Shown in pieces: positions 4,876-39,755 of a DNA stretch of 64,000 nucleotides. The translations under genes and the position numbers were made by a program. The notes below the pieces were generated by a model. That model saw only the letters and a program-made list of their open reading frames with translations. It ran no database searches and was not told where the DNA came from. The stretch is taken from NCBI GenBank assembly GCA_021849125.1, contig JAJZTG010000004.1, positions 1,025-65,024 of the forward strand, in the 5' to 3' direction. The DNA comes from a bacterium (lineage in GTDB: Bacteria > Patescibacteriota > Minisyncoccia > Phycocordibacterales > Phycocordibacteraceae). Within the stretch, counting starts at the first letter, position 1. The number at the start of each line of letters is the position of its first letter.

Positions 4876-4886
4876 AATCTGTTTAT

Positions 4887-5347: not shown

Positions 5348-5421
5348 CGCGAGAGACGGGACTCGAACCCGCAACCTTCCGCGTGACAGGCGGATGCTCT
5401 AACCAGTTGAGCTACTCCCGC
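5348..5421 (-). tRNA. tRNA-Asp (anticodon GTC)
   Basis: Manual cloverleaf: GCGGGAG/CTCTCGC acceptor, CCGCC-TGTCACG-GCGGA-type anticodon arm with GTC, GCGGG-TTCGAGT-CCCGT T-arm, discriminator G. Confidence 0.9.
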
Positions 5422-5489
5422 AAGCGAGGGTCGAAATAAAGCTGGCTTTCATTTCACCCGAGCGCAGCGGGTGCAAGCCTGAAAGGCTT

Positions 5490-5640
5490 ACTCCCACAAA
5501 GTGAGGCAAACAAAGCGCGAAGCGCAACCCGTGAGAGACGCAGAAAATCACATGCTTTTGTGATTTTCTGCGGGTCGAGCGGGTTGGCGCCCCAAGGCGC
5601 CTGTTTCGCCGAACGCCGCAGGGAGAAGGCTTTGCCTACT
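5490..5640 (-). repeat. Conserved ~130-150 nt tRNA leader block, copy 1 (upstream of tRNA-Asp)
   Basis: Shares aagtgaggcaaacRaagcgcgRagcgc...gaaaatcRc hairpin...gtttcgccgaacgYcgc with the copy at 5774-5905. Confidence 0.5.
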
Positions 5641-5699
5641 ACCGCAACGGTTTTTGCATCTTACCAGAATGCTCTCGGATTGTCTCCTTTTGATACGGG

Positions 5700-5773
5700 T
5701 GCCGGGGGGCGGGAATGATCCGCCGACCTTAGCGTTATGAATGCTACGCTCTAACCAACTGAGCTACCCCGGC
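5700..5773 (-). tRNA. tRNA-Met (anticodon CAT; could be Ile2-lysidine type) with atypical T-loop
   Basis: GCCGGGG/CCCCGGC acceptor, TAGCA-TTCATAA-CGCTA anticodon arm, T-arm GGCGG-ATCATTC-CCGCC (A54/T58 instead of T54/A58). Confidence 0.75.
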
Positions 5774-5905
5774 AAAGTGAGGCAAACGAAGCGCGGAGCG
5801 CGACTCCGTGAGGGTCGTGAGAAAATCGCGCTCAAGAGTGATTTTATCACGAGACGAAACGAAGTCGGGCCGAAGGCCCGTTTCGCCGAACGTCGCCGGG
5901 GTATG
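5774..5905 (-). repeat. Conserved tRNA leader block, copy 2 (abuts the 5' end of tRNA-Met)
   Basis: Sequence similarity to 5490-5640 including the gaaaatc...gatttt hairpin. Confidence 0.5.
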
Positions 5906-22947: not shown

Positions 22948-23070
22948 TATGAATAATGAGTTTTGCCTAAGATATCAATGCAGTGGGCTGGAGAAGAGGC
23001 TCGAACCGGACTCCGCTGGTTCAGCGCTGGTTGATAGGTATACGATACCGCAGAAAATAACTCTAGTCAA

Positions 23071-23403
23071 TCACGACTCGCGCGACTTCAGATGACCCGG
23101 CAGCCAATCCATGAACTTCTTGCGGTGGAGATCGAGCGACCAGAAACCGTCTTTGAACTGGTCAGCGTATTGGCGCTTGTACTCCGCGAGGAATGCGGCC
23201 GTAGCACGAGGGAATTCAAGGGGCAGACCCTGGTTATAGAGCGTGAGGAATTCCGAAGCAGAACGCTTCTGCTCGCTACGCTCCCGGTCCAGATCAGGCC
23301 CTCTCATAGATACACCATAGCACCGATCCGGATTAGGCGCTCTCCTGGGCGCCTTTTGCTTATTTTCCCTGCATGCACTTGGAAGCTTCGCTTCCAAGTG
23401 CAA
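23071..23403 (-). CDS. Hypothetical protein (start may be the internal MRGPD at 23307)
   Basis: ORF only; GGTG 6 nt upstream of the internal ATG. Confidence 0.35.
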   Translation of the reverse strand: MHLEAKLPSACRENKQKAPRRAPNPDRCYGVSMRGPDLDRERSEQKRSASEFLTLYNQGLPLEFPRATAAFLAEYKRQYADQFKDGFWSLDLHRKKFMDWLPGHLKSRES

Positions 23404-23500
23404 AGCTTACGTGCTCAATTTCCCCGTATTTGCTAGAGTTCGATTCTTGCCCCCATTTTTTACTTTGTTCGTTGTAGTTCGATTCCGATTCCCTTCTATT

Positions 23501-24109
23501 TCATTTCTGACTGAGAGTTTTTTCTATCGCCGCAATCCCCTGCTTGATCTGTTCGTGGAGGTCATCTCTTGATGTATCAAAGGTATACACAAATGGAAGA
23601 TCAGGAAGCTTGAACTGATCTTTATGAAAATTGAAACGCTCTATAGCGTGCTCGGCATCCTTAAAGAGCCAAGTGTGCGGATAATTCTTAAGTTTGTTGA
23701 TGATGAACTCGACAGGAGGGTTGATGTGAATGAATAACTGTCGCACGTTTGGAAAAAGTTTCTTTGTTTTTTCATTGTAAGCGAGCCCGCGTGGACTTCC
23801 AGTGTTTGCATCCACGGCAACACTATACCCAAAATCGAGATATTTCTCAGTGAGTTCCTGTGATATTTCTCTGGCACCTTCATACGAATACCCTGCCGAC
23901 TTAAATCTCTTACGAATCTCGTCCGTTGAAATACGAATGAGGCCAAAATGCTCTGCAAGAGGTCTCGTTACTGTCGTCTTTCCTGATCCGACAAGTCCAA
24001 CAGGCATAAGCATCCATTGAGCAGATGGCTTCATGTCCGGAATGTTGAGTGTCGTCTCGTATTCGCATTTGATTTCGTCAAGAACTTCTTTTGGAGCATC
24101 TGGAAACAT
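23501..24109 (-). CDS. P-loop nucleotide/nucleoside-kinase-like ATPase (AAA_33/zeta-toxin-like fold)
   Basis: Walker A GLVGSGKTT; 202 aa; low-GC; immediately downstream (minus sense) of repeat copy A. Confidence 0.6.
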   Translation of the reverse strand: MFPDAPKEVLDEIKCEYETTLNIPDMKPSAQWMLMPVGLVGSGKTTVTRPLAEHFGLIRISTDEIRKRFKSAGYSYEGAREISQELTEKYLDFGYSVAVDANTGSPRGLAYNEKTKKLFPNVRQLFIHINPPVEFIINKLKNYPHTWLFKDAEHAIERFNFHKDQFKLPDLPFVYTFDTSRDDLHEQIKQGIAAIEKTLSQK

Positions 24110-24145
24110 ATATCAAAACCAGTATAACTCTACCTATCGTCTGGT

Positions 24146-24561
24146 AAAAGCCGCCCATTAGGGCGGCTTTTACGTACGTGATGCACCACAAGGGCACTTC
24201 TTGTTTTCTAACTCGCTTCGCTCCTAAGAAAACAATGTCGCCTGGCGGTACTGTACTGATCCCAATGGGGGACGGTACTAGTTCCCCCTCCTTCGTCGGG
24301 ACAGGCTGGCGTCACAATGCGTGCCCCTCGTCGATGACTTCTCGTGACTGCGCAAAACAACAAAGCGCCTACATGGGCGCTTTGTTGTTTTGCTTGTTGC
24401 CCGTGTCGGTACGGTACCCGCCACCGCAAGCAATCCAAAGGTTCTTTGGCGACTCTTCTTCCCTCTTTAGCAATGGGGGCCGGTATGGGTCGACTTTGAG
24501 ATGATTAAAGGATTTTTGGCGAGTTTTGAGTGGCGAACAGGAGGATCGGTACCGTACTAAG
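24146..24561. repeat. Island repeat family, copy A (longest; with internal 19-bp perfect hairpin)
   Basis: Hairpin ccgccc-atta-gggcgg + TTTT, then cgtacgtgatg...cctggcggtacTgtactgatcccaaTgggggAcggtac...; extra gggggccggta modules; hairpin gcaaaacaacaaagcgcc/ggcgctttgttgttttgc. Confidence 0.6.
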
Positions 24562-24567
24562 ATTAAG

Positions 24568-25524
24568 TCACGAATTATCCTTCTCACTTTGAGCCATCTG
24601 GGTGTACCACGCGCGCTCAAACGAGGAACGAACTTCTTCTTGGAGTCTTGCTCTTTCATCTTGATTATTAGAACTGAAATATTGTTCAACAAGAGCATCT
24701 ACTTTTTCTCGCTCGGTGGAATCATGTAATACCCCGAGACACGCGAGAACCCTAAGTGATCCTTTTCCAAAAGTGGCTTCAATGTCCTTAAGAGCGAATA
24801 GATTCTCGGCAAACTGACCGCGCTCGAAACTATCCATCACTTCTCCTACAGAAATCCCTTTCGTCATCGCGACTCCTCTGACAATTTTAGAAAACACATT
24901 ATTGTACTGCGCGTACCCATACGAAAACTCCTCGATATCTTTTTTAGCGATACCGAGCTCCTCTTCGAGCTCATCTTTAGTGGCCTCTAGAATCCTGACG
25001 GCCATATACTCTGTCACGATTTCATTAAAACCAGTAAGAGCCGCGCGACCTTCTGGTTCCTTCCATGGGGATGCAAGCTGATAGCCAATCCGCGCAGGAA
25101 CCATTCCATGCTCCTCACTCCCGAAGAATCGGTGCTTTGATGCGCGATGAACCATTTCGTGAACCAGTGTATCTAACAGATCGGCTCCGCCATGATGTTT
25201 GTCCTTGTTTACGAAAATCGCATCGTCAAATGCAGAGGTGGAGCCATGATCGGCACTATTCCCAAGTCTTTTTTCATACGCTTCTGCTGAAAGTAGGTGG
25301 ATCTTTTCAGGAGATATCGGCGTGTACGGGATACCGAGGTCGGCAAGACGACGCTGTAGCAGGTCATTTGCTTTTTCAATATATGCACGATTTTCTTCGG
25401 TTTTCTCCTCTTCCCCTTCGACATGCATAGCAGATTCTTCTGCCCATTTCCCCAAGGATTTCTCAGCTTGAGCCAACTCTTCCTCGTCGTAGGCTCTACC
25501 GATGAATTTCGGTCCTTTCTCCAT
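24568..25524 (-). CDS. Putative zinc metallopeptidase (HExxH) of unknown family
   Basis: LVHEMVHRASKH motif; 318 aa; low-GC. Confidence 0.5.
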   Translation of the reverse strand: MEKGPKFIGRAYDEEELAQAEKSLGKWAEESAMHVEGEEEKTEENRAYIEKANDLLQRRLADLGIPYTPISPEKIHLLSAEAYEKRLGNSADHGSTSAFDDAIFVNKDKHHGGADLLDTLVHEMVHRASKHRFFGSEEHGMVPARIGYQLASPWKEPEGRAALTGFNEIVTEYMAVRILEATKDELEEELGIAKKDIEEFSYGYAQYNNVFSKIVRGVAMTKGISVGEVMDSFERGQFAENLFALKDIEATFGKGSLRVLACLGVLHDSTEREKVDALVEQYFSSNNQDERARLQEEVRSSFERAWYTQMAQSEKDNS

Positions 25525-25555
25525 ATAGGTGAAGTATAGCTTGATTTCGCAAACG

Positions 25556-25700
25556 CAAAAGCCGCTCTCTCGAGCGGCTTTTGCGTACGTGATGCCTGGC
25601 GGTACGGTACTGATCCCAACGGGGGCCGGTAAAGGTCGGTTTTGAGATGGTTGGGAGATGTTCAGCGAGTTTTGATGGGCGAATAGGCAGGGCGATGACG
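25556..25700. repeat. Island repeat family, copy B
   Basis: gcaaaagccgctc-tctc-gagcggcttttgc hairpin + gcgtacgtgatgcctggcggtacggtactgatcccaacgggggccggta... Confidence 0.6.
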
Positions 25701-25874
25701 TGCGCGCCCGGCGGGTGATGTCGCCGATACAAGCGAAACTCAGTATCTACATCAGTGCCGCAACGAATAATATTGAAACCCGGCCTGTGCCGGGTTTCAA
25801 TCTGGACTTACATCACCTTGCTAACCTTGACGCGTTCTAACCCTTGGGGAAGGTTCGTTGCCTGCCCGAAGATA

Positions 25875-27410
25875 TCAGGGATGGGCCTGTACGTATGCGC
25901 GAGTTACGGACCCGAAGTACCCTGCGGCCGGAACTATGCCTACCGCCTTTTGCAGCTTAATGAGAGCTGCTTGAGTTGCCGACCCGAAAGAGGTAGTCTC
26001 ATGCTCGGCAGACCCCGGACCATCGACTGCAACAGTGAAGCCGTGTGCATTGAGGTAGCGTTGGAGTTCTTGCACATCGACTCCGGTGGAGCCCTTCCGC
26101 AAGTCCCTTTGGAAAACGGGGATTGTGTTTGCAGGGGGAGATACCGGCTGGTGCTGTAGTATGGCGCGCACATTATCGATAACCGCCTGATCGACCTTAA
26201 ATGAGGCGAGGACGTTAATGAGTGCCGCGATTTGACCCTCTGACAGTCCTGCAGGAGCTGGTGCGGATGCGACAGGAGTAGCCGTCTCGGTTACCGAGGG
26301 AGAAGAGGTGGCGGAGATGGTTTGCTCAGAGGAAGACGCTATCGTTCCCGTGGTGTCGGAAGTAGTCGCAGTCGTTTCCATTGTGCTCCAATAGCCGCCA
26401 CCGGATGCCGGACTAAAAACGCCAGACGTAGCGACGGTAGATATGTTCCCAACCGTGTCGCACCCTACGGCTTTAAACGATGCCGTGGAGGAAACAGTGA
26501 TGCTTGAGTACGTAGGGCTTGAACAGGTGGGTGTCGAACCGTCAGACGTGAAGCGAATGGAGGAGGCACCAGTCGAGGTAATGGTAATGGTCTGCGAGCC
26601 ATGGAACACAATCCCGTCGGGGGAAAAGATCGGCGTAAGAGGGGCAAGATTGTCCGTAATCGTTCGAGTACTGCCGGTCGCGGCAATACCCACGGAATCC
26701 TTGACTGCGGAGGTCGGATTAATCGTATCGCCGCTCGCAACCGTCATATCCGAGCCAAGCGTGATAGTAAGGACGGTGCCCGCAGTATTCCATGATATGG
26801 CGAGGCCATTTGCGGTGGTGCCAAACGTATGACTACCCGACAACGAGAGGTTCGTATTGAGGTTTGAGGTCGTGAGCGTCGATGTGGCCAACGTCTCGCT
26901 GAAAGTAAGCGCGAGTGTGTCAGTCCCTGAGATATTCGTGGATCCATCGACATCGGACCACGAAACTGAATTGAGCGTCGGTCCGGTTACGTCATAGGTC
27001 ACATTGGGACCGGTTAAGCTAGACTGAGAGATCGTAGTCGTGGCCGTACCAACCGTATCGCCCCATGAAACTTGGAACGAAACCGCTCCCTCGGTCCAGG
27101 TGCTACTGGTTGTCGTGGCATAGTACCAATTGGTTCCACTGCCAGAAAAGGACGTGGAACCCATAGCGAAGATATTGATCTTAGGCGCTTGCCAAGGGGT
27201 GGCATCGAGCGTCAGCTGATAGTTGACGCCGTCTCCCGTTGTGGCTCGCGATGTCGTAGCGAAGCCGGTATTTACATAGACAGGCGTCGAAGTCGAAGTA
27301 ATTGACGTAAGACTGACCGCGGCAGCGGATACAAAGTGCGGTGCCACACCCAACGACAACCCTACCAGGAGGGCAAGACCAATCGGAATTCTAAGAATGT
27401 AGTTCTTCAT
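25875..27410 (-). CDS. Secreted Thr/Ser-rich surface protein with C-terminal peptidoglycan-binding (PG_binding_1-like) domain
   Basis: Signal peptide MKNYILRIPIGLALLVGLSLGVAPHFVSAAA; beta-rich T/S repeats incl. FTSDGSTPTCSSPTYSS (chitobiase-C-like); C-terminal GVDVQELQRYLNAHGF...GYFGSVTRAYV. Confidence 0.6.
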   Translation of the reverse strand: MKNYILRIPIGLALLVGLSLGVAPHFVSAAAVSLTSITSTSTPVYVNTGFATTSRATTGDGVNYQLTLDATPWQAPKINIFAMGSTSFSGSGTNWYYATTTSSTWTEGAVSFQVSWGDTVGTATTTISQSSLTGPNVTYDVTGPTLNSVSWSDVDGSTNISGTDTLALTFSETLATSTLTTSNLNTNLSLSGSHTFGTTANGLAISWNTAGTVLTITLGSDMTVASGDTINPTSAVKDSVGIAATGSTRTITDNLAPLTPIFSPDGIVFHGSQTITITSTGASSIRFTSDGSTPTCSSPTYSSITVSSTASFKAVGCDTVGNISTVATSGVFSPASGGGYWSTMETTATTSDTTGTIASSSEQTISATSSPSVTETATPVASAPAPAGLSEGQIAALINVLASFKVDQAVIDNVRAILQHQPVSPPANTIPVFQRDLRKGSTGVDVQELQRYLNAHGFTVAVDGPGSAEHETTSFGSATQAALIKLQKAVGIVPAAGYFGSVTRAYVQAHP

Positions 27411-27458
27411 TGCTGTACAATAGCACAGGCTATTTGTGCATGAGCGGCTTGTCCCCAA

Positions 27459-27716
27459 GCGCCCCTTCGGGCGGCTTTTGCGTACGTGACGCCTGGCGGT
27501 ACGGTACTGATCCCAACGGGGGCCGGTACTGGTTGCCTCACGTCACAATCGTGTTGCCCGTGTCGGTACCGTACTGGTCCCCATAGGGAGTTACAAGGTT
27601 TTTCAAGCACCTTCCTTCCCCCTTAGTCGACGGGGGCCGGTATGGGTCAGTTTTCAATGGTTTGCAGGGTTTTCGCTCAGCTTTGAGCGTCGAACAAGGG
27701 GGCCGGTACCGAACCA
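27459..27716. repeat. Island repeat family, copy C (three gggggccggta modules)
   Basis: gccccttcgggcggcttttgcgtacgtgacgcctggcggtacggtactgatcccaacgggggccggtac... plus downstream modules shared with copy A. Confidence 0.6.
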
Positions 27717-27891
27717 AACGGGATAAACGGGATACCCCCTACGATCCGGTTGTGGATTTTATTTCTAGGAAACCTGCTAGCATTGAAATTGACCGATCTA
27801 GGGCAATTGCCGCATCGAGCCACGGCTCACACATAGGCACCGGATTCCTGCAGGTCATTGGATCTCCTTTACTCGATCTAATGATGTAGGT

Positions 27892-29268
27892 ATGCAAACG
27901 CAAGATATTGCGATCAGCTACGTGCCGATCGCGAGCCTCACTCCCGCGCCTTATAACCCCCGCACCTGGACGGCGGAGGCGCTCGAGCAGCTCAAAGAAA
28001 GCCTGCGGCGATTCGGATTCGTCGATCCGGTCGTCGCCAACAAAGCGCCGGGCCGCGAGAACTTGGTGCTCGGCGGGCACATGCGGATCGTCGCGGCAAT
28101 GGAACTCGGCATCGAAAGCGTGCCCGTGGTGTACGTGAATATTCCGGACGAGCAGAAAGAGCGCGAACTCAATCTTCGCCTCAACAAGAACCAGGGCGAG
28201 TTCGATCTCGCGCTCTTGGCAGAATTCGACGAGTCGTTCCTCGAGGAGGTCGGCTTCTCGAGCGAAGAGCTCGATGCGATCTTCGAAGAGGAGAAGGAAG
28301 AAGAACTCTTCGATCTCGAGAAGGAGCTCGAGCGGATCGGAATCGAGGAAGTGAAGGTGCAGAAGGGCGACGTGTACGACCTGGACGGCTCGCGCCTCAT
28401 GTGCGGCGATTCGACGATCGAAGCCGATATGCTCAGACTCATGGGCGATCAGAAAGCGGACATGGTGATGACCGATCCCCCGTACATTCTTGATTACCTC
28501 CACGGCAAGGGGCGGCACGGTTCAGCAACGACCGGCTTCGGCGCGAAACGTAACCGGCGGTATCTCGAGACGGAAAGCCTGCCGGAAAACTTCACCGAAC
28601 TCTGGATGAACGCCGTCGCCAAAGTCCAAGCACCGGATTTCGCCATCATCGTGTACGAGAATTGGAAAAACATCCGGACGATATGGGACGAGATGGCGAA
28701 GCGCTGGAAGGTGCGGAACATGCTGGTGTGGCACCTCCCCAACCGGAACCAGGGCTACGCGGGCAAGCACAAGTTCTTCTCGAAGTACGATATCGCGATG
28801 GTCGGCACGAGCGACGCGGAACGCGAAGCCGACATGGGCGACGAGGACGAGCTCGTGCAGAACGAATACGAGACGGCGCTCTTCGCGATCTCGGGCAGGC
28901 CGCAGTGGGAGTCGTACGAGAAAGGCAAGAAATACTGCCCGACGGATTTCATCGACTTCAACGCGGCCGACGAAAAGTCCTCGGGACAGGCGATCATCTT
29001 CGGCACGAAGCCGGTCGAGATCCTGATTCCGTACATAAAGGTGCTCACCAAGCGCGGCCAGATCGTGCTTGAGCCATTCGGCGGGAGCGGGTCGACGCTC
29101 ATCGCCTCGAACACGATCGGACGCCGCTGCTACATCATGGAAAAATCCACGGTGTACGCGGAAGTCATCCTTAATCGCTGGACCAAATTCTCGGGCAAGA
29201 CGCCCACCAAACTCTATGCGGCAAATAGCGTCGGAGAAGTTGGCCCTGATTCTGGAGCTCAAGTCTAA
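27892..29268 (+). CDS. ParB-like nuclease domain fused to beta-class N6-adenine/N4-cytosine DNA methyltransferase
   Basis: N-terminal ParB/Srx motif (LVLGGHMRIVAAMELG); motif IV TDPPY followed by C-terminal motif I EPFGGSGST (beta-class order); high-GC segment inside the island. Confidence 0.85.
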   Translation: MQTQDIAISYVPIASLTPAPYNPRTWTAEALEQLKESLRRFGFVDPVVANKAPGRENLVLGGHMRIVAAMELGIESVPVVYVNIPDEQKERELNLRLNKNQGEFDLALLAEFDESFLEEVGFSSEELDAIFEEEKEEELFDLEKELERIGIEEVKVQKGDVYDLDGSRLMCGDSTIEADMLRLMGDQKADMVMTDPPYILDYLHGKGRHGSATTGFGAKRNRRYLETESLPENFTELWMNAVAKVQAPDFAIIVYENWKNIRTIWDEMAKRWKVRNMLVWHLPNRNQGYAGKHKFFSKYDIAMVGTSDAEREADMGDEDELVQNEYETALFAISGRPQWESYEKGKKYCPTDFIDFNAADEKSSGQAIIFGTKPVEILIPYIKVLTKRGQIVLEPFGGSGSTLIASNTIGRRCYIMEKSTVYAEVILNRWTKFSGKTPTKLYAANSVGEVGPDSGAQV

Positions 29269-29815
29269 CCCGATCGTGCTCGCCGCGTGCCGGAAACTCG
29301 GCATACCGACGAGCACGTATTACCGGTGGCGGGATCAGGACACGCGGTTCAGGAAAGAGGCGGACCGTTCGATCAGGAACGGCCGGAGGATGGTCAGCGA
29401 CATGGCCGAAGTTCATGTGCTTAAGGGCGTGAAGCATGGCGACAAGACTTATGTCATGTGGTGGCTCAAGACGTTCTCTCCCGCCTACAAGAAACAGGAG
29501 AAATCGGTAATCGAGATCCGGCAGAAAGACGCAGTGCCCAAGGCAAAGCCCGAAAAGCCGTCGAAGTGGCTGCAGCCGACTGTCCCCATGACCACTGACG
29601 AAGATCTTGAAAAAGCCGATCCGAAACTGGCCAAGCATCTGGAGAGAGCGGTCCGAGGAATCTTCAGGCGGAGCAAGCGTGAGGAAGCTCTCGAGCGCGC
29701 GCTTCGGAAAGCCAATGTGTCTCAGCAGGAGATTGATGCGCTCTTGCAGCAGGTCGACGAGGAGGAAAAGAAGAACGAAGAGCTGAACGAGATGTTCAGG
29801 AAGAAGAAATCCTGA
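29216..29815 (+). CDS. HTH DNA-binding protein (terminase-small-subunit/transposase-like HTH), start uncertain
   Basis: LGIPTSTYYRWRDQ helix-turn-helix; Lys/Glu-rich C-terminus; ORF extends upstream into the MTase in another frame. Confidence 0.45.
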   Translation: MRQIASEKLALILELKSNPIVLAACRKLGIPTSTYYRWRDQDTRFRKEADRSIRNGRRMVSDMAEVHVLKGVKHGDKTYVMWWLKTFSPAYKKQEKSVIEIRQKDAVPKAKPEKPSKWLQPTVPMTTDEDLEKADPKLAKHLERAVRGIFRRSKREEALERALRKANVSQQEIDALLQQVDEEEKKNEELNEMFRKKKS

Positions 29816-29822
29816 AGATTGC

Positions 29823-30278
29823 CTAAGCGCCGTCCCGGAGCTCGTCGAGCTTCTTCTTGATCTCGTACGGACGCTCGATGTGCGCGAACACGATTTCCTC
29901 TCCCCTGCTACCGGCAGTATTGATCCCGAGCGAGCCGGTCTTGTATATCCAGCTGTCGAGGATCGGCTCCACGACGGTGACGTCCGTTATCTTGGAGTAC
30001 TCGGTGGTGGTCAGGTTGGTCGAGAGGAAACCGCGATGGCATAGGACGCGACGGTCGGTGAATGCGAACGCATTCGCCGCCTTCGCGTATACGCCGTAGT
30101 ACCAGACGGCGATGCCGATTGCGATCAGGCCCCACATCCACGAAAGGAAGAAAACGAACACGCCGAAGAATATGCCGAGTCCCATGCAGACGTACCTGTA
30201 GCGATCGCCGACCGAGAATTCGTACTTCACTTCTTCGTCCTTGTTGAGGACCTTGTCCCAAATATGCTGATGCTTCAT
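29823..30278 (-). CDS. Bacterial PH-domain (bPH_2/YdbS-like) membrane protein
   Basis: Two TM helices followed by AFTDRRV... PH-like domain; start chosen at MKHQHIW. Confidence 0.55.
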   Translation of the reverse strand: MKHQHIWDKVLNKDEEVKYEFSVGDRYRYVCMGLGIFFGVFVFFLSWMWGLIAIGIAVWYYGVYAKAANAFAFTDRRVLCHRGFLSTNLTTTEYSKITDVTVVEPILDSWIYKTGSLGINTAGSRGEEIVFAHIERPYEIKKKLDELRDGA

Positions 30279-30537
30279 AGGATTACGCGAGTTGGTAATT
30301 CCTGAGAAGCGGGTACACAAAACCCGCCACCAGGAGCCCTTGCGGGCCTATAGGAGTTTCCCCCTATAACGCATCGAACGCCCTGATGACGGGTTTTCTA
30401 GGTTCGATGCGATTTGTGACCATGCCAGCGGCCGGAGCCATTAGTTTAGGTCGTTACTAGCACAGGGCTAGTACTTAAAGAGTAGCTTAGATAAACGGGT
30501 TTGCGAAGAGGTCCACCAACAGCTAGCAAACAGAGAG

Positions 30538-31506
30538 CTATTTTCGACTTTTTAGGCTTTCGTGTGCGCCTACAAGTAATTGGAGAGCAGCAGCCTGGAA
30601 ACGGTGGTCAGTAACTAGCTGAGGAATTTGGATTGCGCGCACAGATTCCGGAAGAGAATAGTTGGCAAAAACCGAAGATTTTTTGCAGCGCATATCATCA
30701 GCGGGCACCACATCAAGCAATGGCCCATACTCCGCCTCGAAAGTTGTGAGCTTCGATTGAAGTGCCTTCTCGAAATCAAGTGGACGTGATTTTATGTATC
30801 GATGGTTTTTAAAGCCGACCCGCGAAGCCAGCTCCATCAAATCTTTTGCTTCCACGCCCTTCCCTAGAGCCTTCCTCATCAATAGACTCTCATTACTAAC
30901 ATGGTCTCGAATGAATGAGTACTGTTCCAATAAATCAATCCTTTTTCGATGGAGTGTTGCAACAATCAAGGATTCTTGAGCATATGCGCGAAAGGTTCCT
31001 CGGTCGTGGTGCTGCAGAAGTCTGAGAATCTCTGAAACCGCACTTTCGAAATTGCCGATTAAAAGATGTCGTTCAAGTCCGTAATAATAAAGAAATACAT
31101 AACTCAGATTTGTTGGCTTAGTGATATCCCTTAACCAGGAGAGATATTGATATCGATGTTTGGGGGAGAGACGAGAATACGATGGGTAATACATCGGTTC
31201 TTTCTCCAGTTCGTCGTTCTCCTCTACGGGCAATTTTGTCCAAATCAAACTAGGTTCTCCAAAAAAATTATGCCCATCATCAACGTGCGTTTCTACCTCA
31301 CCTGACGAAACGGAAATTGTCATCTTAATTGCCATCGGTGAGGCAATTTTCGATACATCTTCAAAAGTAACCCAGAGAAGTGATTTTGTGGGTTCGGGTA
31401 TGACGAACTGCTTTTTGAGAGACGCGGGAGTATGCACAATGAGTCCCGTAGCCGCTTGTTCCTCAACATCGTGTCTAAGGAAGCGAGAAAGATCCATGTT
31501 AGACAC
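30538..31506 (-). CDS. Hypothetical protein (island operon member)
   Basis: 322-aa ORF, 8-nt overlap with the upstream DUF2779 gene; low-GC. Confidence 0.5.
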   Translation of the reverse strand: MSNMDLSRFLRHDVEEQAATGLIVHTPASLKKQFVIPEPTKSLLWVTFEDVSKIASPMAIKMTISVSSGEVETHVDDGHNFFGEPSLIWTKLPVEENDELEKEPMYYPSYSRLSPKHRYQYLSWLRDITKPTNLSYVFLYYYGLERHLLIGNFESAVSEILRLLQHHDRGTFRAYAQESLIVATLHRKRIDLLEQYSFIRDHVSNESLLMRKALGKGVEAKDLMELASRVGFKNHRYIKSRPLDFEKALQSKLTTFEAEYGPLLDVVPADDMRCKKSSVFANYSLPESVRAIQIPQLVTDHRFQAAALQLLVGAHESLKSRK

Positions 31507-33004
31507 CCACGGCCAGCTGGTAGAGATGCTTCCAAATCACGTACATCGCGAATGTGTCGCGTCCGCAATATATCCTTAGATCTGATGCGATTTGCCTACG
31601 TTCTTCTTCAGGAGCCGTGGGGGATATCATTGACCACCAGGCATCGGAAGCCTGACCGCCTTCATGGATGTTAAGATCTCCGTAATTAAGGTCAGGCGCA
31701 AGCGCGGGAAGCACCTTCTTGATAGAAGTTTTACCTCGAAATTCAGGGTGGACGTAATACTGCTTATGGAATACGTCCTTCAGGTCGTACATCTGTTCAT
31801 TGATCCTTTCCAGAGCCGCCTTGTGATCTGGCAAGCGTGCAGCCATCTCTCTGTTCACACCCTGCTCGAAACTTTTGTTCCAAGAAATAATACTACCCTT
31901 TGCACCGATGCTTCGCACCAACAGATCAGCGAGTGGTTTTGATGGGTCAGATGCGATTTCATGCAGATACTCAACATGTTCCGGTTCGACTGAAGGGTCT
32001 CGAAGAATATGGAGAGAGAATTGAAACGGGATACGACTATATGGGCTATAGCCGTTGAACATGGGAATGGCAGGCGCAAAGGTCTCATAATCTAGGAAAT
32101 AAAGCGGAAAGGTCAACTGCTCCAATTCCTCCCGTATCCTATCGACTTCGATAATTGCCGTTTGCGAGCGATGCACTCGTAGCTGATTCACTTGGATTTC
32201 ACTTAGTTCGATATCAGCCGGAACATCGTTAAGATCGAAAAGTCGCCGCTCGACCATTATTGAGAGTTTCTTCTTACTATTTCCGATACGAGCCAGATCA
32301 TGTATGGAGTACTCCGGCACGTCCGGATTTGAGTATTTGAAGGTTGAGCAATGAGAGCTTCTTCCTGAATAGACACAATCACATCCTTCGGAGGGTTCGT
32401 CTGTTCTTGAAAGATATCCCTTTGCCGCGTCCATCTTTTCTTCAATTTCCGACAAACGGGCGGCTATCTTCTCACTCATGTCCTCCACTAGAAACATCTT
32501 GTCGAGCTCCAAATCTCCGGCGCGCACATATTCTTTGTTGAGATGTATGAGGAAGTATTTGCCAACTTCCACCCTAGCCCGCTTTAGGACGGACGCCTGA
32601 AATGCGAGATCGTCTATGTGGCTTCGATCTGACCCCTCTTCCTTGATCGAATTGGTGCCTTTTATCTCGTAGATATCCCATCGCCTGCTCGTCTCGTCAT
32701 AACCGAGAACATCAACCTTCGTGATAAACCCATCAACAACGAAAGTTGCCTGGAAGATGGCCGAAACCCTTGCGAGCACGAGCCTTTCGGTTTCTCTAAC
32801 TGCCTCGTCCTCGGTAGCAGTTACCTGCACACCTCCTGGGAAAAGATTGCGCGCGTATGTCTCCACTTCGTTTCCCTGCTCGACTAATTGCAACTCGAAT
32901 GGCGAGAGCGAGAACATGTCGAGCAACTCCGGCTTGTGCCGTTTAAGCCAGATATTTTTCGGACACATTAGAAACTCGAGAAAGGTAGTTTTGGAGATCA
33001 TCAT
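31499..33004 (-). CDS. DUF2779-like protein (predicted PD-(D/E)xK-type nuclease N-domain plus RNase-H-like C-domain)
   Basis: N-terminus ISKTTFLEFLMCPKNIWLKRHKPE resembles the DUF2779 signature; C-terminal RIYCGRDTFAMYVIWK. Confidence 0.55.
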   Translation of the reverse strand: MMISKTTFLEFLMCPKNIWLKRHKPELLDMFSLSPFELQLVEQGNEVETYARNLFPGGVQVTATEDEAVRETERLVLARVSAIFQATFVVDGFITKVDVLGYDETSRRWDIYEIKGTNSIKEEGSDRSHIDDLAFQASVLKRARVEVGKYFLIHLNKEYVRAGDLELDKMFLVEDMSEKIAARLSEIEEKMDAAKGYLSRTDEPSEGCDCVYSGRSSHCSTFKYSNPDVPEYSIHDLARIGNSKKKLSIMVERRLFDLNDVPADIELSEIQVNQLRVHRSQTAIIEVDRIREELEQLTFPLYFLDYETFAPAIPMFNGYSPYSRIPFQFSLHILRDPSVEPEHVEYLHEIASDPSKPLADLLVRSIGAKGSIISWNKSFEQGVNREMAARLPDHKAALERINEQMYDLKDVFHKQYYVHPEFRGKTSIKKVLPALAPDLNYGDLNIHEGGQASDAWWSMISPTAPEEERRQIASDLRIYCGRDTFAMYVIWKHLYQLAVGV

Positions 33005-33014
33005 GGAACGATAC

Positions 33015-36000
33015 CTAAATAACGGGTTTTATTCCTAGTTCTTCCAATTTTCCCCACAAACTATCAAGTGCCCCTTCTTTGTGGCGATAGAACGAACTAC
33101 CTGTGATACGCCAAAATTCCCATCCCGCACGACGCAATTGTCGTTCGCGTACTTGATCTTCTTCCCAATTCTCGAGCGTATGATACTGATCTCCGTCACA
33201 CTCCACCGCAAGACGAGCTTCGGCACCCTGCACGACTAAATCGATACGGTAACCAATTACGGGATATTCCGGCAGGACCTGATATCCCTTATCAAGGATG
33301 AGATTCCCAACCTCATATGAGAATTGTGATGCTCGTCCAGAATCGAATTCTTTCTTAAGTGCTTCCCGACCCGCCTTGAGCTCTTCTTTCTTCGGATCGT
33401 AGTACCAATTGAGGAGCTTGAATCGCCAGTCGTTCTGATTTCTGAATTCTTCCAAGGGAATTGAATGGAAAAGGAATACCTGGTCGCGTGCGCGAGTGGC
33501 AGCCACATTGAAGCGCTGCGCTGCCCCCTTGTCAGTGAGAGGGGCGATGGTGTCATTTGGTTTGTTGGGATCGAGAGCTCGGACCATCGATAGGAGCATT
33601 ACGTCGCGTTCATCGCCTTGAAAGGCGTAAGCGTCTCCGCAGATGATTTTTCGCTCTTCGATCACCTTCTCTCCGATCTTGGGATGCTTCAAAATGAGAT
33701 CCTTGATGTATTTTGCTTGGTCCTCAGCAAGCAAGGAGATAACCCCGAATGTGCAGAGATGACCATCTGGCCGCTTCTGATAATTCGGATCTTCAAGAAG
33801 CTCAACGAGTTTATCGACAATCGCCTTCGCCTCGGGCTCGTTTACCTTGTTGTTTGTATTTTGATATCCACCCCCAATTAAGATAGGCACGAGAGCCGGT
33901 TTAAGAAGACCTTTCGGATTAGGATGCCGAAGCGGCTGAAGCTTGTGGTCATAAATATAATGATTACTAAATTCGATAATATCTGGAACACATCTAAAAT
34001 GTTCATTCAGTTGGATCATGTTAGGAATTCTTATCTTCGCCAGGTCAAAGAGGCTCGAAGTTATCGAGAAATTATCCTTATGAGGGATATCGAAGAGGAA
34101 TCGAGAAATGAGTTCAAAGATCTTTTCTTGATCCTGGAAGATTCCCGCCGGGCTGATCTGGTCAGGGTCACCCACGACAAGCAATTTCTTACCAAGATAA
34201 CCGATAGTAAGACCGCGAATATCGCACTGACTTGCCTCATCGAAGATCACGACATCGAACATGCCGGGAATAGGATCTGAGAACATTTGAGCTACGCGGT
34301 GCAAGGGCATGATCCATACAGGGACCGCATTCTTTGCCTCCTTAAGAGACTGCTGCGCCGAATTGAGCCACTTGTTGGCATATTTGCCGGTTCCCTTTCC
34401 GTACTTCTTCATCGCATCGGACCATGCCATCAGAGCATCGCGCTGACGCTTGGTAACCTTGTCGATTTGGCGCTGCCAGGCAAGCACCGTAACAAGCTCA
34501 GAATTCAGTTCGAATTCTTTCTTGGTCAGACGCTCGAGCTGACCCTGGAGATTGTCGATGTCGTCATGATCGTGAATGCTATTGAGCCACGATTCGAGTC
34601 GAGCGACCTTCCAAGCCACGAGCAAATTGTCCGGACATTCAAATTTCTGCTTCTGATCAGCAAGCTCGATGATCTCTCCGCAAAGTTGAGGAACCTGCTT
34701 CTTAAGCAGTTCGCACAATTCATTGATCCTAATGGCCTTCTCTTTCTTTCCTACAAGTAGATCAAGCTTCTCAGTGCAGCTTTTCCAACCGGAAGAATTA
34801 TGCTTCACAATTGCCTGTGCAAGCTCATCAACAATTGCGTGCTGTGTGCGGAAATTCACAGATGATCGAATGGCTTCTTCCCATTCAGTAAATGACTTCT
34901 CGAGGTTCTTTAGCTCGAAAGCAGCCGCGCGTGACGCAGTAAGTTCGATGGCAGTATCAATATCTTCCTTTTTGATAAATGAGAGATCGGAGAGTTCCTT
35001 TACCTCATTGAAGCAAGCGTCGATGGCTGAGAAATCAGAGCGGTAATTCACCAATCTCTGAAGGCCCGCAACGAATACCTCGAGCTTAACCATATCGAGG
35101 CGATCCATGTCGATTTCAAGCGGATTCTTGAGCGTCGACAGACCTTGTTCGAGAAGCGTCTTGATGTCGCGCTCCGCAGACTCAACAAGTATCGAGTTCC
35201 GCAGGATCTCTACCCTCTCCGGACTGTCTGGCTCGACACCATCCACCTTGTACATTTCAAGAATGCGCTTTGCGTTTCCAGGAAGGAGCATTTTACCGAA
35301 TGTTCCCAACTTGCCCTTTGATGCTTTTGCATATAACGCTTCTATCGCTTCACGGAGATCATGAGGTGAGAGATTCGATTGTCCTGAAATGATGTGACCG
35401 ATTGAGCTGTTCTTACCCTTTGCAACAATCTGAATCTTATCTGAAATCTTTGAAAGAATGGTGGACCACTTTTCGCGCTCATTCTGACTAATAGTGCATG
35501 CGTCGAAGATTTCCTGTTCGTAGTCTTTATTGATTGATCCCAAGACCCTCTTTGCCTTGTTGAGCAATTCCCACAGCTGACCCAGTTTCTCTTGATCAAT
35601 CTTTGCCTTACTGAATGCCTCGTCAGAAGATTTAGATTTTGCGCTGAGATCACGATATGAGGCAAAAGCACTGAGCACCACATCTTCATTTGGAAGGGTT
35701 GAAGGATCAGGCAGATCCTCTTTGTAGAGGGTACGATCTACAGCTTCTACTTCTCGAGCGAGATCGTAGAGCTCCTGCAGATCTTCTTCGGTAAATTCAG
35801 GATCAGCATCGAATGGAACCTTATCGGTGAACCACGCAACAGCTTCGTTATCTTTATTCTTATCAACAAACTTTGCAGCATCGATCGGCTTAATTTCTGC
35901 ACCATCAATAACTAACTTCTCTGATGAATCAGTGAGAATGTACTGCCGGATCTTTGATGCAAGAGTGGCTTTCTCTTCACGAACCTTCTTAAGATCTCTT

Positions 36001-37811
36001 CGAACATTCTCCGCTCGAGCATCGCTGAATTTGGTATCTCTTTCACCCAAATTTGAGCTAATTTCCGCGATCGATTGCTGAAGCACGTCATCGCGCTTCG
36101 CGGTCTGCTGCAATTGAGATACTGCAAGGCTTCTGATGTTTTCAGGAAGCTTGTCACGCAAGACCTCCAGGGCTTTACTGGTTTGAGAAGTCACCAACAC
36201 GCTTTTACCTTCTGCAAGGAAGCGTGAGATCAGGTTTGCAATAGTGTGACTCTTTCCGGTGCCCGGTGGACCTTTTACGACAACACCATAATTTGCGTCG
36301 AGTCGTTCCGCGATTCTTTTCTGTTCATCATTCCAAGGCAATGGGAAAAAGAGCTCTGATTCAGGAATAGAGACATTGCCGCCTGCTGCCCTCTCGCCAG
36401 ATCCATCATGGGCACCTATAGGAGCCTCGTCATATTCACCAACGAGGTCAGCAATGAATTCGGTTGCTTCAACACCATATTGTTCGATATCTTTTCGAAT
36501 AGTGGCCGCGTACTTTGACCACATATCGTTTGTTCGCTTGCGTGCGAAGATCACTGGCGCATTCCAGATGCTTGGATTCTTTGAAGCCGTAGGGGCCGAT
36601 ACGATTTCATCGGTGAATTGATCCTCTCCATCCGGTGAGATGTAGTTGATAAGCGTCTGAGCCTGGCCTTTCAGTGTCTCAAGGTGCCAGAAGTCAAAAG
36701 GGTTGGTATTGATGGTATCTCCCCACGTGATGAGATCCATTTCTGCCGGGTTGTCAGTTTCATAGAGCGCTGAAGTCTCTACAAAATTTCTGAACATGGG
36801 ATCAGGATTGATCTCAATTGTTCGCTTTGAGGCATCGAAATCGAGCGTGAGCGGGCTTAAGAAGATCGGAGTGTAGATCGTACCTACACCTTGATGCTGC
36901 CAGGCCAAAACACCGTGACCCAAAAGGAGTTCATAGTTGTCGCCTTCATTCTTGAGAAGCAATCGGAGTGCGTAAAGCTGATCATAAAGAAGGTTTGCCT
37001 TATAGACTTTCTTCACCTGCTCTGCCCAAGGTTTCCAGTCATTCTCGGTATACCCATTGAGAAGCTTCGCGAGCGCCGGATGATCCACCCAATGATCAGG
37101 CTCATATCTCACACTAATGATTTCTGGTAGCTTGTTTGGCAAAATAGTTACCCAATCCTTCAAGCTTTCAGGAATATCATCTCCTTGCTCGTAATTCTTG
37201 CGGAAGTCTCTGAATTCCTTCTCACGATCCTTGTCATCAGCAAATCGGACCTTGCGATCGATCTTTTCTTTAGCAATCGGTGCTTGCAACGGATTCACTT
37301 CGTCAATCCATTCTTCGAGAAGGCTTGGCAACTCCGGTGCTGCTTTGATGTTTTTCTTTTCTACCTTGAGCCAAGAAGTGGACTGTACACCCTCAGGAGT
37401 TTTTTCAGTATCAAAAGGACGGATGGTTAGGTTCTCGAGATCTGTTGGATAGTCAGCAAGCCACCAAGGGGAAGGTGCTGCACTAGTGGTGCGGAAATCT
37501 CTAATAATTGAATCATCAATTGCGAGAGCTTTCTCCAAATATGTAAAGAGTCGGATGACTTTATTTTGTGCTTCTGCAGAAAGATTGGAGACACGCTTCA
37601 CCCGAGACTCTGTAACCTCAATATCCGTGGGGCTTGAGATCTCAACGACAGACTTCTGATTCTTGAGAATTTCGCGTTGCTGCTTCATGGCTTCCGCTTT
37701 GCATTCAGAACACACCGTGCCCTGTTTGACTTTGTGTTTCTTGCAGACAGTGCATAGAGGTTTGGTTGCCCAATATCGCCTTGCATCAAATTTGCTGCGA
37801 TAGGGCGACAT
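33015..37811 (-). CDS. 1598-aa SF1 (Upf1-like, AAA_11/AAA_12) helicase with N-terminal zinc ribbon and DUF4011-like region and C-terminal DUF559/Vsr-like endonuclease domain (Hhe-like)
   Basis: CTVCKKHK...CSECK zinc ribbon; Walker A GPPGTGKSH; motif II VVIFDEASQ; LVVGDPDQISP; motif VI NVAATRARD; C-terminal GYRIDLVVQGAEARLAVECDGDQYH (DUF559/MTES_1575-type). Confidence 0.85.
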   Translation of the reverse strand: MSPYRSKFDARRYWATKPLCTVCKKHKVKQGTVCSECKAEAMKQQREILKNQKSVVEISSPTDIEVTESRVKRVSNLSAEAQNKVIRLFTYLEKALAIDDSIIRDFRTTSAAPSPWWLADYPTDLENLTIRPFDTEKTPEGVQSTSWLKVEKKNIKAAPELPSLLEEWIDEVNPLQAPIAKEKIDRKVRFADDKDREKEFRDFRKNYEQGDDIPESLKDWVTILPNKLPEIISVRYEPDHWVDHPALAKLLNGYTENDWKPWAEQVKKVYKANLLYDQLYALRLLLKNEGDNYELLLGHGVLAWQHQGVGTIYTPIFLSPLTLDFDASKRTIEINPDPMFRNFVETSALYETDNPAEMDLITWGDTINTNPFDFWHLETLKGQAQTLINYISPDGEDQFTDEIVSAPTASKNPSIWNAPVIFARKRTNDMWSKYAATIRKDIEQYGVEATEFIADLVGEYDEAPIGAHDGSGERAAGGNVSIPESELFFPLPWNDEQKRIAERLDANYGVVVKGPPGTGKSHTIANLISRFLAEGKSVLVTSQTSKALEVLRDKLPENIRSLAVSQLQQTAKRDDVLQQSIAEISSNLGERDTKFSDARAENVRRDLKKVREEKATLASKIRQYILTDSSEKLVIDGAEIKPIDAAKFVDKNKDNEAVAWFTDKVPFDADPEFTEEDLQELYDLAREVEAVDRTLYKEDLPDPSTLPNEDVVLSAFASYRDLSAKSKSSDEAFSKAKIDQEKLGQLWELLNKAKRVLGSINKDYEQEIFDACTISQNEREKWSTILSKISDKIQIVAKGKNSSIGHIISGQSNLSPHDLREAIEALYAKASKGKLGTFGKMLLPGNAKRILEMYKVDGVEPDSPERVEILRNSILVESAERDIKTLLEQGLSTLKNPLEIDMDRLDMVKLEVFVAGLQRLVNYRSDFSAIDACFNEVKELSDLSFIKKEDIDTAIELTASRAAAFELKNLEKSFTEWEEAIRSSVNFRTQHAIVDELAQAIVKHNSSGWKSCTEKLDLLVGKKEKAIRINELCELLKKQVPQLCGEIIELADQKQKFECPDNLLVAWKVARLESWLNSIHDHDDIDNLQGQLERLTKKEFELNSELVTVLAWQRQIDKVTKRQRDALMAWSDAMKKYGKGTGKYANKWLNSAQQSLKEAKNAVPVWIMPLHRVAQMFSDPIPGMFDVVIFDEASQCDIRGLTIGYLGKKLLVVGDPDQISPAGIFQDQEKIFELISRFLFDIPHKDNFSITSSLFDLAKIRIPNMIQLNEHFRCVPDIIEFSNHYIYDHKLQPLRHPNPKGLLKPALVPILIGGGYQNTNNKVNEPEAKAIVDKLVELLEDPNYQKRPDGHLCTFGVISLLAEDQAKYIKDLILKHPKIGEKVIEERKIICGDAYAFQGDERDVMLLSMVRALDPNKPNDTIAPLTDKGAAQRFNVAATRARDQVFLFHSIPLEEFRNQNDWRFKLLNWYYDPKKEELKAGREALKKEFDSGRASQFSYEVGNLILDKGYQVLPEYPVIGYRIDLVVQGAEARLAVECDGDQYHTLENWEEDQVRERQLRRAGWEFWRITGSSFYRHKEGALDSLWGKLEELGIKPVI

Positions 37812-37815
37812 ATCA

Positions 37816-38136
37816 TTATTTAACTATATCTTGACCCAAAGGCCCCTCAATAAGCTTGATTGTTTCTTTTACGAACTCCTCCCACGTATACGAACCCTTA
37901 TACCAAAGGAGGACGGCATCCGTTCTATGTTTTAAGAGTTTGAGGAACTTCTGCCAAGTAAAACCATTGGGTTTTAATGCGTCTTTCCACTCCCTCCACA
38001 GATATTGAGGCAGCTTATTCCCGTACCAGACATTTAAGGAATCCCAATTTATTCGGCCTGACTTATCAGTCATACCTTCAATCTTTCGAATCCACTCTTT
38101 TACCTCTATGGGCTCTTTGGGCACTGATAATTTCAT
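37816..38136 (-). CDS. Small hypothetical protein immediately upstream of the helicase gene
   Basis: Longer ORF (to 38451) overlaps the recombinase start on the other strand, so the internal MKLSVPKEP start is preferred; 4-nt gap to the helicase ATG. Confidence 0.4.
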   Translation of the reverse strand: MKLSVPKEPIEVKEWIRKIEGMTDKSGRINWDSLNVWYGNKLPQYLWREWKDALKPNGFTWQKFLKLLKHRTDAVLLWYKGSYTWEEFVKETIKLIEGPLGQDIVK

Positions 38137-38241
38137 ACCCCAAGTATATAGGGCATCAAGGAAATTGCAAAGTCTGCCTAGACTCCCTGCGCGGATTGCG
38201 TCATCCCTTGGGGTGTGCGAATTATCAAGTAAACAACGGAC

Positions 38242-39584: not shown

Positions 39585-39684
39585 AAGCCGCGACAAGTCG
39601 TCGCGGCTTTTGCTTACGTGATGCCCGTCGGTACCGTACTGGCCTTTGGGCGGGCCGGTACTGGTTCCTGGCGTCACAACCGTG
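39585..39684. repeat. Island repeat family, copy D = trailer and terminator of the tRNA-fMet-like gene (also terminates the recombinase gene)
   Basis: gccgcgac-aagtc-gtcgcggc hairpin flanked by A/T tracts, then gcttacgtgatgcccgtcggtaccgtactgg...gggcgggccggtactgg... Confidence 0.6.
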
Positions 39685-39755
39685 TTGCGGGGGCCGGAAT
39701 CGAACCGGCGTCTGGAGGTTATGAGCCTCCCGAGGTACCTCTCCTCTACCCCGCT
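39685..39755 (-). tRNA. Initiator-like tRNA-Met (anticodon CAT) with A1:A72 mismatch; 3' end identical to E. coli tRNA-fMet (TCCGGCCCCCGCAAC)
   Basis: Manual fold: AGCGGGG/CCCCGCA acceptor (1:72 unpaired), GAGG/CCTC D-stem, GGAGG-CTCATAA-CCTCC anticodon arm, GCCGG-TTCGATT-CCGGC T-arm, 4-nt variable loop. Confidence 0.6.

Follow-up and report, generated by a model that had tools for sequence, protein, structure and literature searches.

Repeats following an initiator-like tRNA-Met gene as probable attachment-site modules of an integration hotspot in Patescibacteria

Introduction

The genomes of Patescibacteria (Candidate Phyla Radiation, CPR) are very small, and the ways in which they gain accessory genes are poorly understood. 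In a 64-kb stretch of one of them (GenBank assembly GCA_021849125.1, contig JAJZTG010000004.1, positions 1,025 to 65,024, hereafter "the window"), single genes are set apart by copies of a short non-coding repeat, one of which lies directly behind an initiator-like tRNA-Met gene. The locus raises the question of what this repeat is, and how its copies came to stand between unrelated genes. Two readings accompanied the original prediction, namely remnants of attachment sites left where elements integrated repeatedly at the tRNA 3′ end, or a family of leader/attenuator RNAs or small RNAs. We consider it probable (roughly 0.7) that an integration hotspot lies at the 3′ boundary of this initiator-like tRNA-Met gene in Patescibacteria, and that the repeats are its attachment-site modules. 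The best reading of the array is tandem accretion, at this boundary, of integrative units, most of them without an integrase.

The repeat is the 3′ flank of tRNA-Met

An nhmmer profile built from related sequences and run over the 64-kb window gave exactly four matches to the repeat core, all on the minus strand (24176–24317, 25586–25634, 27483–27556 and 39615–39687), and these are the four co-oriented copies, A to D, that had been described before. A fifth, degenerate copy (E, 23335–23493), absent from the earlier description, follows the kinase gene. The functional sense of the family is the minus strand, as for tRNA-Met(CAT). Short motifs of the family were over-represented in the window when judged against dinucleotide shuffles, with GGGGCCGGTA (up to one mismatch) observed 11 times against 2.4 expected, a count reached in 0 of 100 shuffles, CGGTACNGTACTG 6 times against 0.06 and GTACNGTAC 8 times against 0.17. 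Copies inside the window diverge from one another by 10–30%. The conserved core of about 50 nt that had been reported in every copy was recovered by the four profile matches, but in copy A it is split by two hairpin-forming insertions. G+C content is reduced over 23–25 kb and 30–38 kb of the window.

Related loci, labelled L### below, were retrieved from genomes and metagenome contigs. An exact-pattern scan yielded 8 loci from species-representative genomes, and a scan of metagenome contigs yielded 52, of which 47 were genuine. The five dropped loci (L017, L020, L022, L039 and L042) are unrelated GTAC-rich tandem repeats, and in L020, L022, L042 and L039 these form long arrays of ~24-nt units (CAGTACAGCAGTACCGTACCGGT...). 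The core does occur in related genomes, a check that had been suggested with the original prediction: all 8 species-representative loci belong to Patescibacteria, with a single locus per genome, and the metagenome loci add to them.

In these relatives the repeat is a unit of ~75–100 nt, seen in more than 50 Patescibacteria contigs, which lies immediately 3′ of an initiator-like tRNA-Met gene and which we call the trailer. It reads ACGGTTGTGACGCCAGGAACCAGTACCG-N-CCCCC...GGG-CAGTACAGTACCGCNNGGCATCACGTAC with a GC-rich hairpin and T-run, its layout being ACGGTTGTGACGCCAGGAACCAGTACCG-hairpin-CAGTACAGTACCGCCAGGCATCACGTAC and then the terminator hairpin. The gene order GatA, 191-aa open reading frame (ORF), tRNA-Met is kept in more than 20 loci, the window included. 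Since the trailer stands 3′ of tRNA-Met in relatives with this synteny, copy D, which had been recognised correctly as the trailer and terminator of a tRNA-fMet-like gene and lies directly 3′ of the initiator-like tRNA-Met, is the native-type tRNA flank, and copies A to C are further copies of it. About 75 nt of the trailer are 90–95% conserved among genomes whose GatA is only 70–83% identical. Comparison of the trailer between relatives also showed the trailer and an unrelated gene directly after the tRNA in L002, L008, L054 and others.

The reiterated gggggccggta modules had been likened to the tRNA acceptor/T-arm strand. They belong instead to the trailer and to an arm of ~190 nt on its left (the M-type left arm, see below), and no tRNA fragment was detected in 24100–27800 by ARAGORN or by the Rfam tRNA model, even at E ≤ 10. 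A pseudo-tRNA in copies A and C, where MAFFT had placed part of the sequence against the tRNA body, was rejected on the same grounds and is better described as the M-type left arm. Displaced repeats share only the last 4–5 nt of the tRNA gene, and their left arms merely mimic its T[T/A]CC-N8-CAAC end.

Apparently displaced tRNA 3′ halves in some relatives (L004, L007 and others) were likewise discarded as candidates: the tRNA-Met genes of these loci are interrupted by a group I intron, and the supposed halves are their 3′ exons. The intron was matched by Rfam in L048 (6998–7249, minus strand), the 5′ exon and intron are visible in L007, and further cases were read by eye in L004, L007/L012, L013, L028, L032, L035 and L047/L051. 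It lies in the anticodon loop, at two different insertion points among relatives. Intron-split tRNA-Met genes were missed by ARAGORN and are followed by a normal trailer; the window tRNA has no intron.

Arrays of trailers share one junction

With the nhmmer core profile, two to four co-oriented trailer copies spaced 1–3 kb apart were found in at least 14 other loci, including L028 (four copies), L018, L014 and L048 (three each), L043, L005, L024, L041, L009, L003, L040, L055 and L034. Copies in the window, and in each related locus, are all clustered downstream of tRNA-Met and co-oriented. The sequence CAAC/ACG/GTTGTGA (slashes set off the central bases) is common to every one of the 53 distinct junctions and spans the end of the tRNA gene and the start of the trailer. 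No other segment recurs in all trailer types and all left arms.

Upstream of the junction the sequences fall into unrelated classes, namely the tRNA itself, the M-type arm, class 3, class 3b and class 4. The M-type arm (~190 nt) was found in copies A and C of the window and in 15+ further copies (nhmmer E values 1e-42 to 1e-53), and the class 3 arm, rich in T-arm-like motifs, is found in window copy E. In every left arm T[T/A]C[C/T]-N8-CAAC is retained and lines up with GATTCC-N8-CAAC of the tRNA, and the trailer start, GTTG-N8-GGAACC, is an approximate inverse of this arm/tRNA end. The idea of tandem attachment-site remnants at the tRNA 3′ end thus stands in substance, in that the repeat is the tRNA-Met 3′ flank, co-oriented arrays with variable cargo recur in at least 14 other loci, and the same downstream unit can be tRNA-adjacent in one genome and displaced in another. 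The 3′ end of the tRNA gene was the right place; the junction, however, lies at the gene end/trailer start (CAAC/ACG/GTTG) and not inside the T-arm.

Metagenome contigs very often end within 300 nt of the element, as would be expected if the junction is multicopy and varies between strains. In L035 (4874–7100 and 9946–12267) no tRNA stands behind GatA and the 191-aa ORF, the next gene being Fic; the intron-bearing tRNA-Met with its array lies 5 kb off and inverted, which suggests an inversion at the hotspot.

Layout of the array in the window

Read in the minus sense, from the tRNA to the outer edge, the order in the window is tRNA, copy D, a 12-kb recombinase unit, copy C, a peptidoglycan-binding (PG-binding) protein gene, copy B, an HExxH protein gene, copy A (two scars), a kinase gene and copy E. 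The features are as follows.

39684–39755, minus strand: initiator-like tRNA-Met(CAT), the anchor of the array (ARAGORN; Rfam tRNA, 58.9 bits)
39663–39701, minus strand: candidate recombination core at the tRNA/trailer boundary, GATTCC-N8-CAAC / ACG / GTTG-N8-GGAACC, centre 39681–39683
39585–39683, minus strand: copy D, core and GCGAC-type terminator hairpin directly 3′ of the tRNA (profile, 66.3 bits; hairpin covariation)
38242–39579, plus strand: large serine recombinase, 445 aa (Pfam Resolvase, Recombinase and Zn_ribbon_recom)
27746–38241, no single strand: body of the recombinase-carrying unit (Pfam, Rfam, low G+C)
27459–27745, minus strand: copy C, with M-type left arm 27553–27743 (150 bits), type I trailer 27483–27556 and hairpin 27459–27480
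25875–27410, minus strand: cargo, secreted protein with CHB_HEX_C_1/Fn3_assoc and PG_binding_1 (Pfam)
25556–25700, minus strand: copy B, putative deletion derivative, with part of a left arm 25617–25694, distal trailer half 25586–25634 and hairpin
24568–25524, minus strand: cargo, 318-aa HExxH protein without a family match
24146–24586, minus strand: copy A, two scars back to back (175.8 bits)
23501–24109, minus strand: cargo, P-loop kinase (Pfam AAA_33)
23335–23493, minus strand: copy E, degenerate, with class 3 left arm 23420–23493 (E = 1.3e-16) and hairpins 23335–23419

The window tRNA-Met has an A1×A72 mismatch, as read from the sequence, and CCA is not encoded. The copy D hairpin directly adjoins the stop codon of the large serine recombinase gene, and behind that gene the body of the unit holds a 211-aa ORF, a 1598-aa helicase-nuclease, DUF2779, TerB_N, a LOOT RNA, bPH_2, a helix-turn-helix (HTH) protein and a ParB-N6/N4 methylase. 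The LOOT RNA (Rfam RF03000; 30335–30452, minus strand; 75.7 bits against a gathering score of 46.4) lies between the TerB_N and bPH_2 genes.

The displaced copies differ in how complete they are. Copy C has the junction GGGCAAC/ACG/ATTG. Copy B does belong to the family, as had been proposed, in that it retains the distal trailer half and hairpin (40 bits, profile positions 26–74), but it is fused at TACCGGCCCCC and lacks the junction core; it appears to have been deleted between two TACCGGCCCCC motifs. The first scar of copy A consists of an M-type left arm (24396–24586) ending in GGGCAAC, followed by a terminator-like 18-bp hairpin (24352–24393) whose arms, 24352–24369 and 24376–24393, are 18 nt long and not 19 as previously described. 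Its second scar has a short arm (24318–24351) ending in GGGGCAC, a type I trailer (24176–24317) carrying the two hairpin insertions, and a hairpin (24146–24175). This architecture recurs in L045 and L015, and the core insertions recur in L008/L021 and in L009/L014/L045.

After its left arm, copy E holds a remnant ...CACGTAAGC, a perfect 12-bp stem with a GAA loop and a GGCGC hairpin. Beyond it lie a 78-aa ORF and then the CSD gene, and homology to the CSD-gene region of a relative resumes near 23034. The relative L041 shares only this CSD-gene region with the window, placing the outer boundary at approximately 23034–23335, and copy E marks the outer edge of the array.

Cargo, recombinase and related units in different genomes

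Behind the first trailer, ORFs of 150 aa or more formed 138 clusters, almost all of them singletons. Identified cargo included Shedu SduA, DUF4238, DNA methylases, HsdM, Fic, GDSL lipase, NYN and subtilase genes, and in the window the 1598-aa helicase-nuclease, DUF2779, TerB_N, PG-binding protein, HExxH protein and P-loop kinase. The small single-gene units encode no recombinase.

The large serine recombinase was the only recurrent recombinase among the neighbours sampled, with homologues 57–80% identical in 16+ loci. In 13 loci its gene stands downstream of a trailer, on the strand opposite to it; a short conserved ORF comes next, and the HTH protein and ParB-methylase genes farther on, an order also kept in L016, L047, L052 and L021. 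In both the window and L021 the ParB-methylase gene is followed by an M-type arm and trailer, which mark the other end of the recombinase unit. The best NCBIfam match of the window recombinase was CcrB (E = 2e-35), at 122 bits against a cut-off of 900, so the protein is probably related to Ccr without being an equivalog, and its closest solved structure was the SPbeta YokA integrase (5.8e-12). This CcrB-like enzyme (38242–39579) is the most likely candidate for the recombinase acting at the junction. The search for tyrosine recombinases, which covered the window island, the recurrent downstream families and 10 unassigned singleton ORFs of 272–492 aa (Pfam) and was not exhaustive, found none.

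The 211-aa ORF (37816–38451, minus strand) and the recombinase ORF lie on opposite strands, with their 5′ ends overlapping by ~210 nt. The first ~75 aa of the 211-aa ORF are conserved beside the recombinase in ~10 loci, and its product could be a regulator or directionality factor.

Several units were found at different positions in different genomes. The trailer and downstream gene of L002, which are tRNA-adjacent, are 94.5–97% identical over 500–655 nt to the fourth unit of L028, whereas the GatA flanks of the two loci are only ~70% identical. Similarly, the downstream genes of L054 (tRNA-adjacent) and L019 (displaced, behind a class 3 arm) are 83% identical. The window kinase gene and class 3 arm recur in L003 as the first unit after the tRNA, with 72% amino-acid identity, and the L003 homologue sits between tRNA-Met and a canonical trailer. 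IMG/VR gave no exact matches to the core or arms, and phage and plasmid collections gave no blastn match; a phage or plasmid origin was accordingly dropped as a candidate.

A model of unit insertion

These observations would fit a model in which mobile units insert at ...CAAC/ACG/GTTG..., a few bases past the mature tRNA end. One side of each unit would bring a trailer-like arm and terminator, remaking the 3′ flank of the tRNA and insulating the unit, and the cargo gene would follow this arm with its own −10 box. The other side would be a left arm, either the M-type of ~190 nt or class 3, ending in the tRNA-end mimic ...T[T/A]CC-N8-CAAC. Repeated insertion would displace older units outward, and the order in which the units went in is one that we infer. 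Small single-gene units may have been moved in trans or have become fixed.

Several points weigh against this interpretation. The crossover position at CAAC/ACG/GTTG and catalysis by a serine recombinase are inferred from sequence comparison. The 12/20 dyad symmetry of the core falls on the junction, which had been defined independently, but in a scan of all centres 13% of shuffles reached it (P = 0.13), and as it was not significant after this correction we rejected it as proof of a serine-recombinase site and kept it as a hint. Large serine recombinases need only ~40–50 bp, and a site of this size explains neither the high conservation of the distal ~50 nt of the trailer nor the presence of hairpin insertions within what would be the right half-site. 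Several arrays, e.g. L028, have no recombinase within the retrieved DNA. The copy count in the genome itself covers the 64-kb window, and the search patterns fixed parts of the core, so that its apparent invariance is inflated.

A more far-reaching version of the model, which we regard as tentative, is that the tRNA-Met boundary serves as a cassette-capture platform run by the CcrB-like serine recombinase. Capture, shuffling and exchange between lineages would take place at the ~40-bp core and would concern integrase-less, self-insulated units, each made up of trailer and terminator, promoter, one or a few genes and a left arm that mimics the tRNA end, making the site the main entry point for defence and accessory genes, and the trailer might double as a processed 3′ trailer RNA.

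RNA structure, terminators and promoters

Covariation was assessed with RNAalifold and explicit pair counts on 44 distinct trailers. In the terminator hairpin, 10 of 13 pairs covary. In the core helices one pair is C·A in 40 of 44 sequences, pair 67–80 is unpaired in 13 of 44, and only 0–2 isolated double changes were seen. The M-type arm folds at −10 kcal/mol over 157 nt, with 1 of its 14 pairs covarying. A structured RNA for the core or the M-type arm was therefore rejected, covariation being confined to the terminator apart from isolated changes. Rfam 15 gave nothing at gathering score, and the only matches at E ≤ 10 were terminator-like.

Copies A, B and C had been placed 30–50 nt before gene starts in the minus sense, and the measured distances are 33–49 nt. 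A TATACT-like −10 box lies 6–10 nt before the ATG of the cassette genes, right after the trailer terminator, both in the window (24121–24126 and ~25535–25545) and in many other loci (e.g. L010, L013, L016, L028 and L056). With the box this close to the ATG, mRNA leaders would be very short or absent, and the hairpin, which precedes the −10-like box, would lie outside the leader and so could not act as an attenuator of the next gene. A simple promoter/terminator scan recognised few of the hairpins, because their T-tracts consist of only four T. Neither part of the suggested leader/attenuator or small-RNA family was borne out: the proposed Rfam scan and covariation analysis of the aligned copies returned no family and placed the support in the terminator hairpin alone, which comes before the −10-like box of the gene that follows. 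The trailer may still have a secondary role as a tRNA 3′ trailer RNA, since its distal half is conserved beyond the needs of a 40–50-bp recombinase site and hairpin-forming insertions recur in it at two fixed positions.

Alternative explanations

The trailer could be primarily a functional RNA, whether a 3′ external transcribed spacer, a small RNA co-transcribed with tRNA-Met or a cis leader, with its copies as paralogous RNA genes. It lies between a tRNA and a well-supported terminator and is almost certainly transcribed, its ~75 nt are far better conserved than GatA, hairpin-forming insertions recur at two fixed positions like the variable stems of structured RNAs, and two isolated compensatory changes fall in a possible closing stem. 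We nevertheless consider this explanation unlikely, as pairs in the core helices either do not vary or are mismatched, the fold of the M-type arm is weak and has one covarying pair, Rfam matches were restricted to terminators, the terminator comes too early to attenuate the next gene, and displaced copies far from the tRNA are conserved as well as tRNA-adjacent ones. Classical tyrosine-integrase islands, whose integrase was lost or lies outside the sampled DNA and for which the serine recombinase is bystander cargo, would be in keeping with most tRNA-gene islands, which use tyrosine integrases (Islander). The left arms hold several T-arm-like motifs (GGAATCGAAC / GTTCGATT) recalling multi-site attP arms, and for some arrays the flank that was retrieved encodes no serine recombinase. 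Set against this are the lack of tyrosine recombinases in the families and singletons searched, the fixed orientation and gene order, relative to the trailers, of the sole recurrent recombinase, and a junction past the mature tRNA and not in the anticodon or T loop, which together make this explanation improbable.

Segmental duplication and homologous recombination between trailers, leaving frozen duplicates with no site-specific system now acting, is distinctly improbable. Copy B and minimal arms in L028 and L030 do resemble repeat-mediated deletions between short motifs, and the 10–30% divergence of the window copies shows that they are not recent. The cargo, however, is unrelated between units and between genomes, so the units are not duplicates of each other, the context of every copy changes at one position, which duplication does not predict, and near-identical units stand in divergent genomic backgrounds. 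A generic dispersed intergenic repeat (REP/BIME-like or MITE-like) clustered here by chance is barely credible: the element is short, non-coding, hairpin-bearing and multicopy, and contigs break at it, but its four core matches in 64 kb fall in one 16-kb stretch on one strand, each of the 8 species-representative genomes has a single locus, further copies all lie a few kb downstream of tRNA-Met, and there are neither terminal inverted repeats nor target duplications.

Comparison with known systems

Attachment-site modules at a tRNA boundary would make the ssrA islands of Dehalococcoides appear the closest published parallel. Those islands are tandem and bounded by ssrA 3′-end repeats, with a CcrB-like serine integrase (DsiB) and a ParB gene beside attL on the reverse strand, and their integrase-less units have been attributed to accretion or cis-mobilisation (PMC3146451). 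Both systems have tandem islands downstream of a single-copy tRNA-like gene, same-orientation 3′-end repeats, a CcrB-related serine recombinase with a ParB-domain gene, and units without an integration module. They differ in that the Dehalococcoides target is the T-loop of tmRNA with a 20-bp repeat, whereas here the junction lies just past the mature tRNA-Met and the module is 75–100 nt with a terminator. Many units here are also single genes of 1–3 kb, the host belongs to a different phylum, the recombinase is 445 aa long, and a second small serine recombinase was not observed.

Staphylococcal and enterococcal cassette chromosome elements (SCC and ECC) integrate at the 3′ end of one conserved gene and form composite arrays bounded by direct repeats, which include recombinase-less pseudo-elements. 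The present locus resembles these Ccr systems in its Ccr-type large serine recombinase (with CcrB as the best NCBIfam match in the window), integration at a gene 3′ end and composite arrays. The SCC target is, however, the rlmH coding sequence and not a tRNA flank, the match of 122 bits is far from the CcrB cut-off of 900, and there is no ccrA/ccrB pair here.

Among the tycheposons of Prochlorococcus most integrases are tyrosine recombinases and a minority of elements use large serine recombinases (10.1101/2020.12.28.424599). Tycheposons and other tRNA-gene islands share with this locus site-specific insertion at tRNA genes, newcomers that push older elements outward, and degenerate remnants and partial repeats across a hypervariable island. 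As in tandem tRNA-gene islands, there is an intact tRNA at one end, a same-orientation repeat ending the units (in part for copy B), a likely integrase encoded in the inserted DNA and a site differently occupied in relatives. Tycheposon repeats are true partial tRNAs, whereas here no displaced repeat is recognisable as a tRNA fragment and the repeat is the downstream flank.

Integron arrays are alike in having mostly single-gene, recombinase-less cassettes, a recurring site module and one recombinase gene nearby. In contrast to integrons, no IntI-type tyrosine recombinase was found in the window island or sampled neighbours, and the modules have no attC-like imperfect hairpin with R″/R′ boxes, being conserved in sequence with the terminator as the only supported hairpin. 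The cassettes here also carry a terminator and a promoter-like box, and the recombinase gene lies inside or after the array and not at a fixed attI.

Literature searches found no description of a tRNA-Met hotspot locus in Patescibacteria. The locus would not constitute a new class; Ccr/DsiB-like accretion at the end of a conserved gene, a mechanism already known, would here be seen in a new phylum and at a new target. It would place beside an initiator-type tRNA gene a hotspot where defence genes (Shedu, restriction-modification, Fic, helicase-nuclease) and other small cargo pile up as tandem units. The ~75-nt trailer and left-arm profiles may serve as markers for such islands and explain contig breaks in CPR metagenome bins, and the serine recombinase with its candidate ~40-bp target forms a testable enzyme/site pair. 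A cassette-capture platform, if true, would be a main entry of defence and accessory genes into minimal genomes.

Other repeats and tRNA genes in the window

The longest direct repeat in the window, of 155 nt (47708–47862 and 48217–48371, 88% identity, 509 nt apart), is unrelated to the array. Four further tRNA genes (Thr, Thr, Asp, Met) are clustered at 4800–5774 on the minus strand, where a 40-nt spacer is repeated (5489–5528 and 5765–5804, 85% identity) and a 28-nt inverted repeat lies at 5525–5586.

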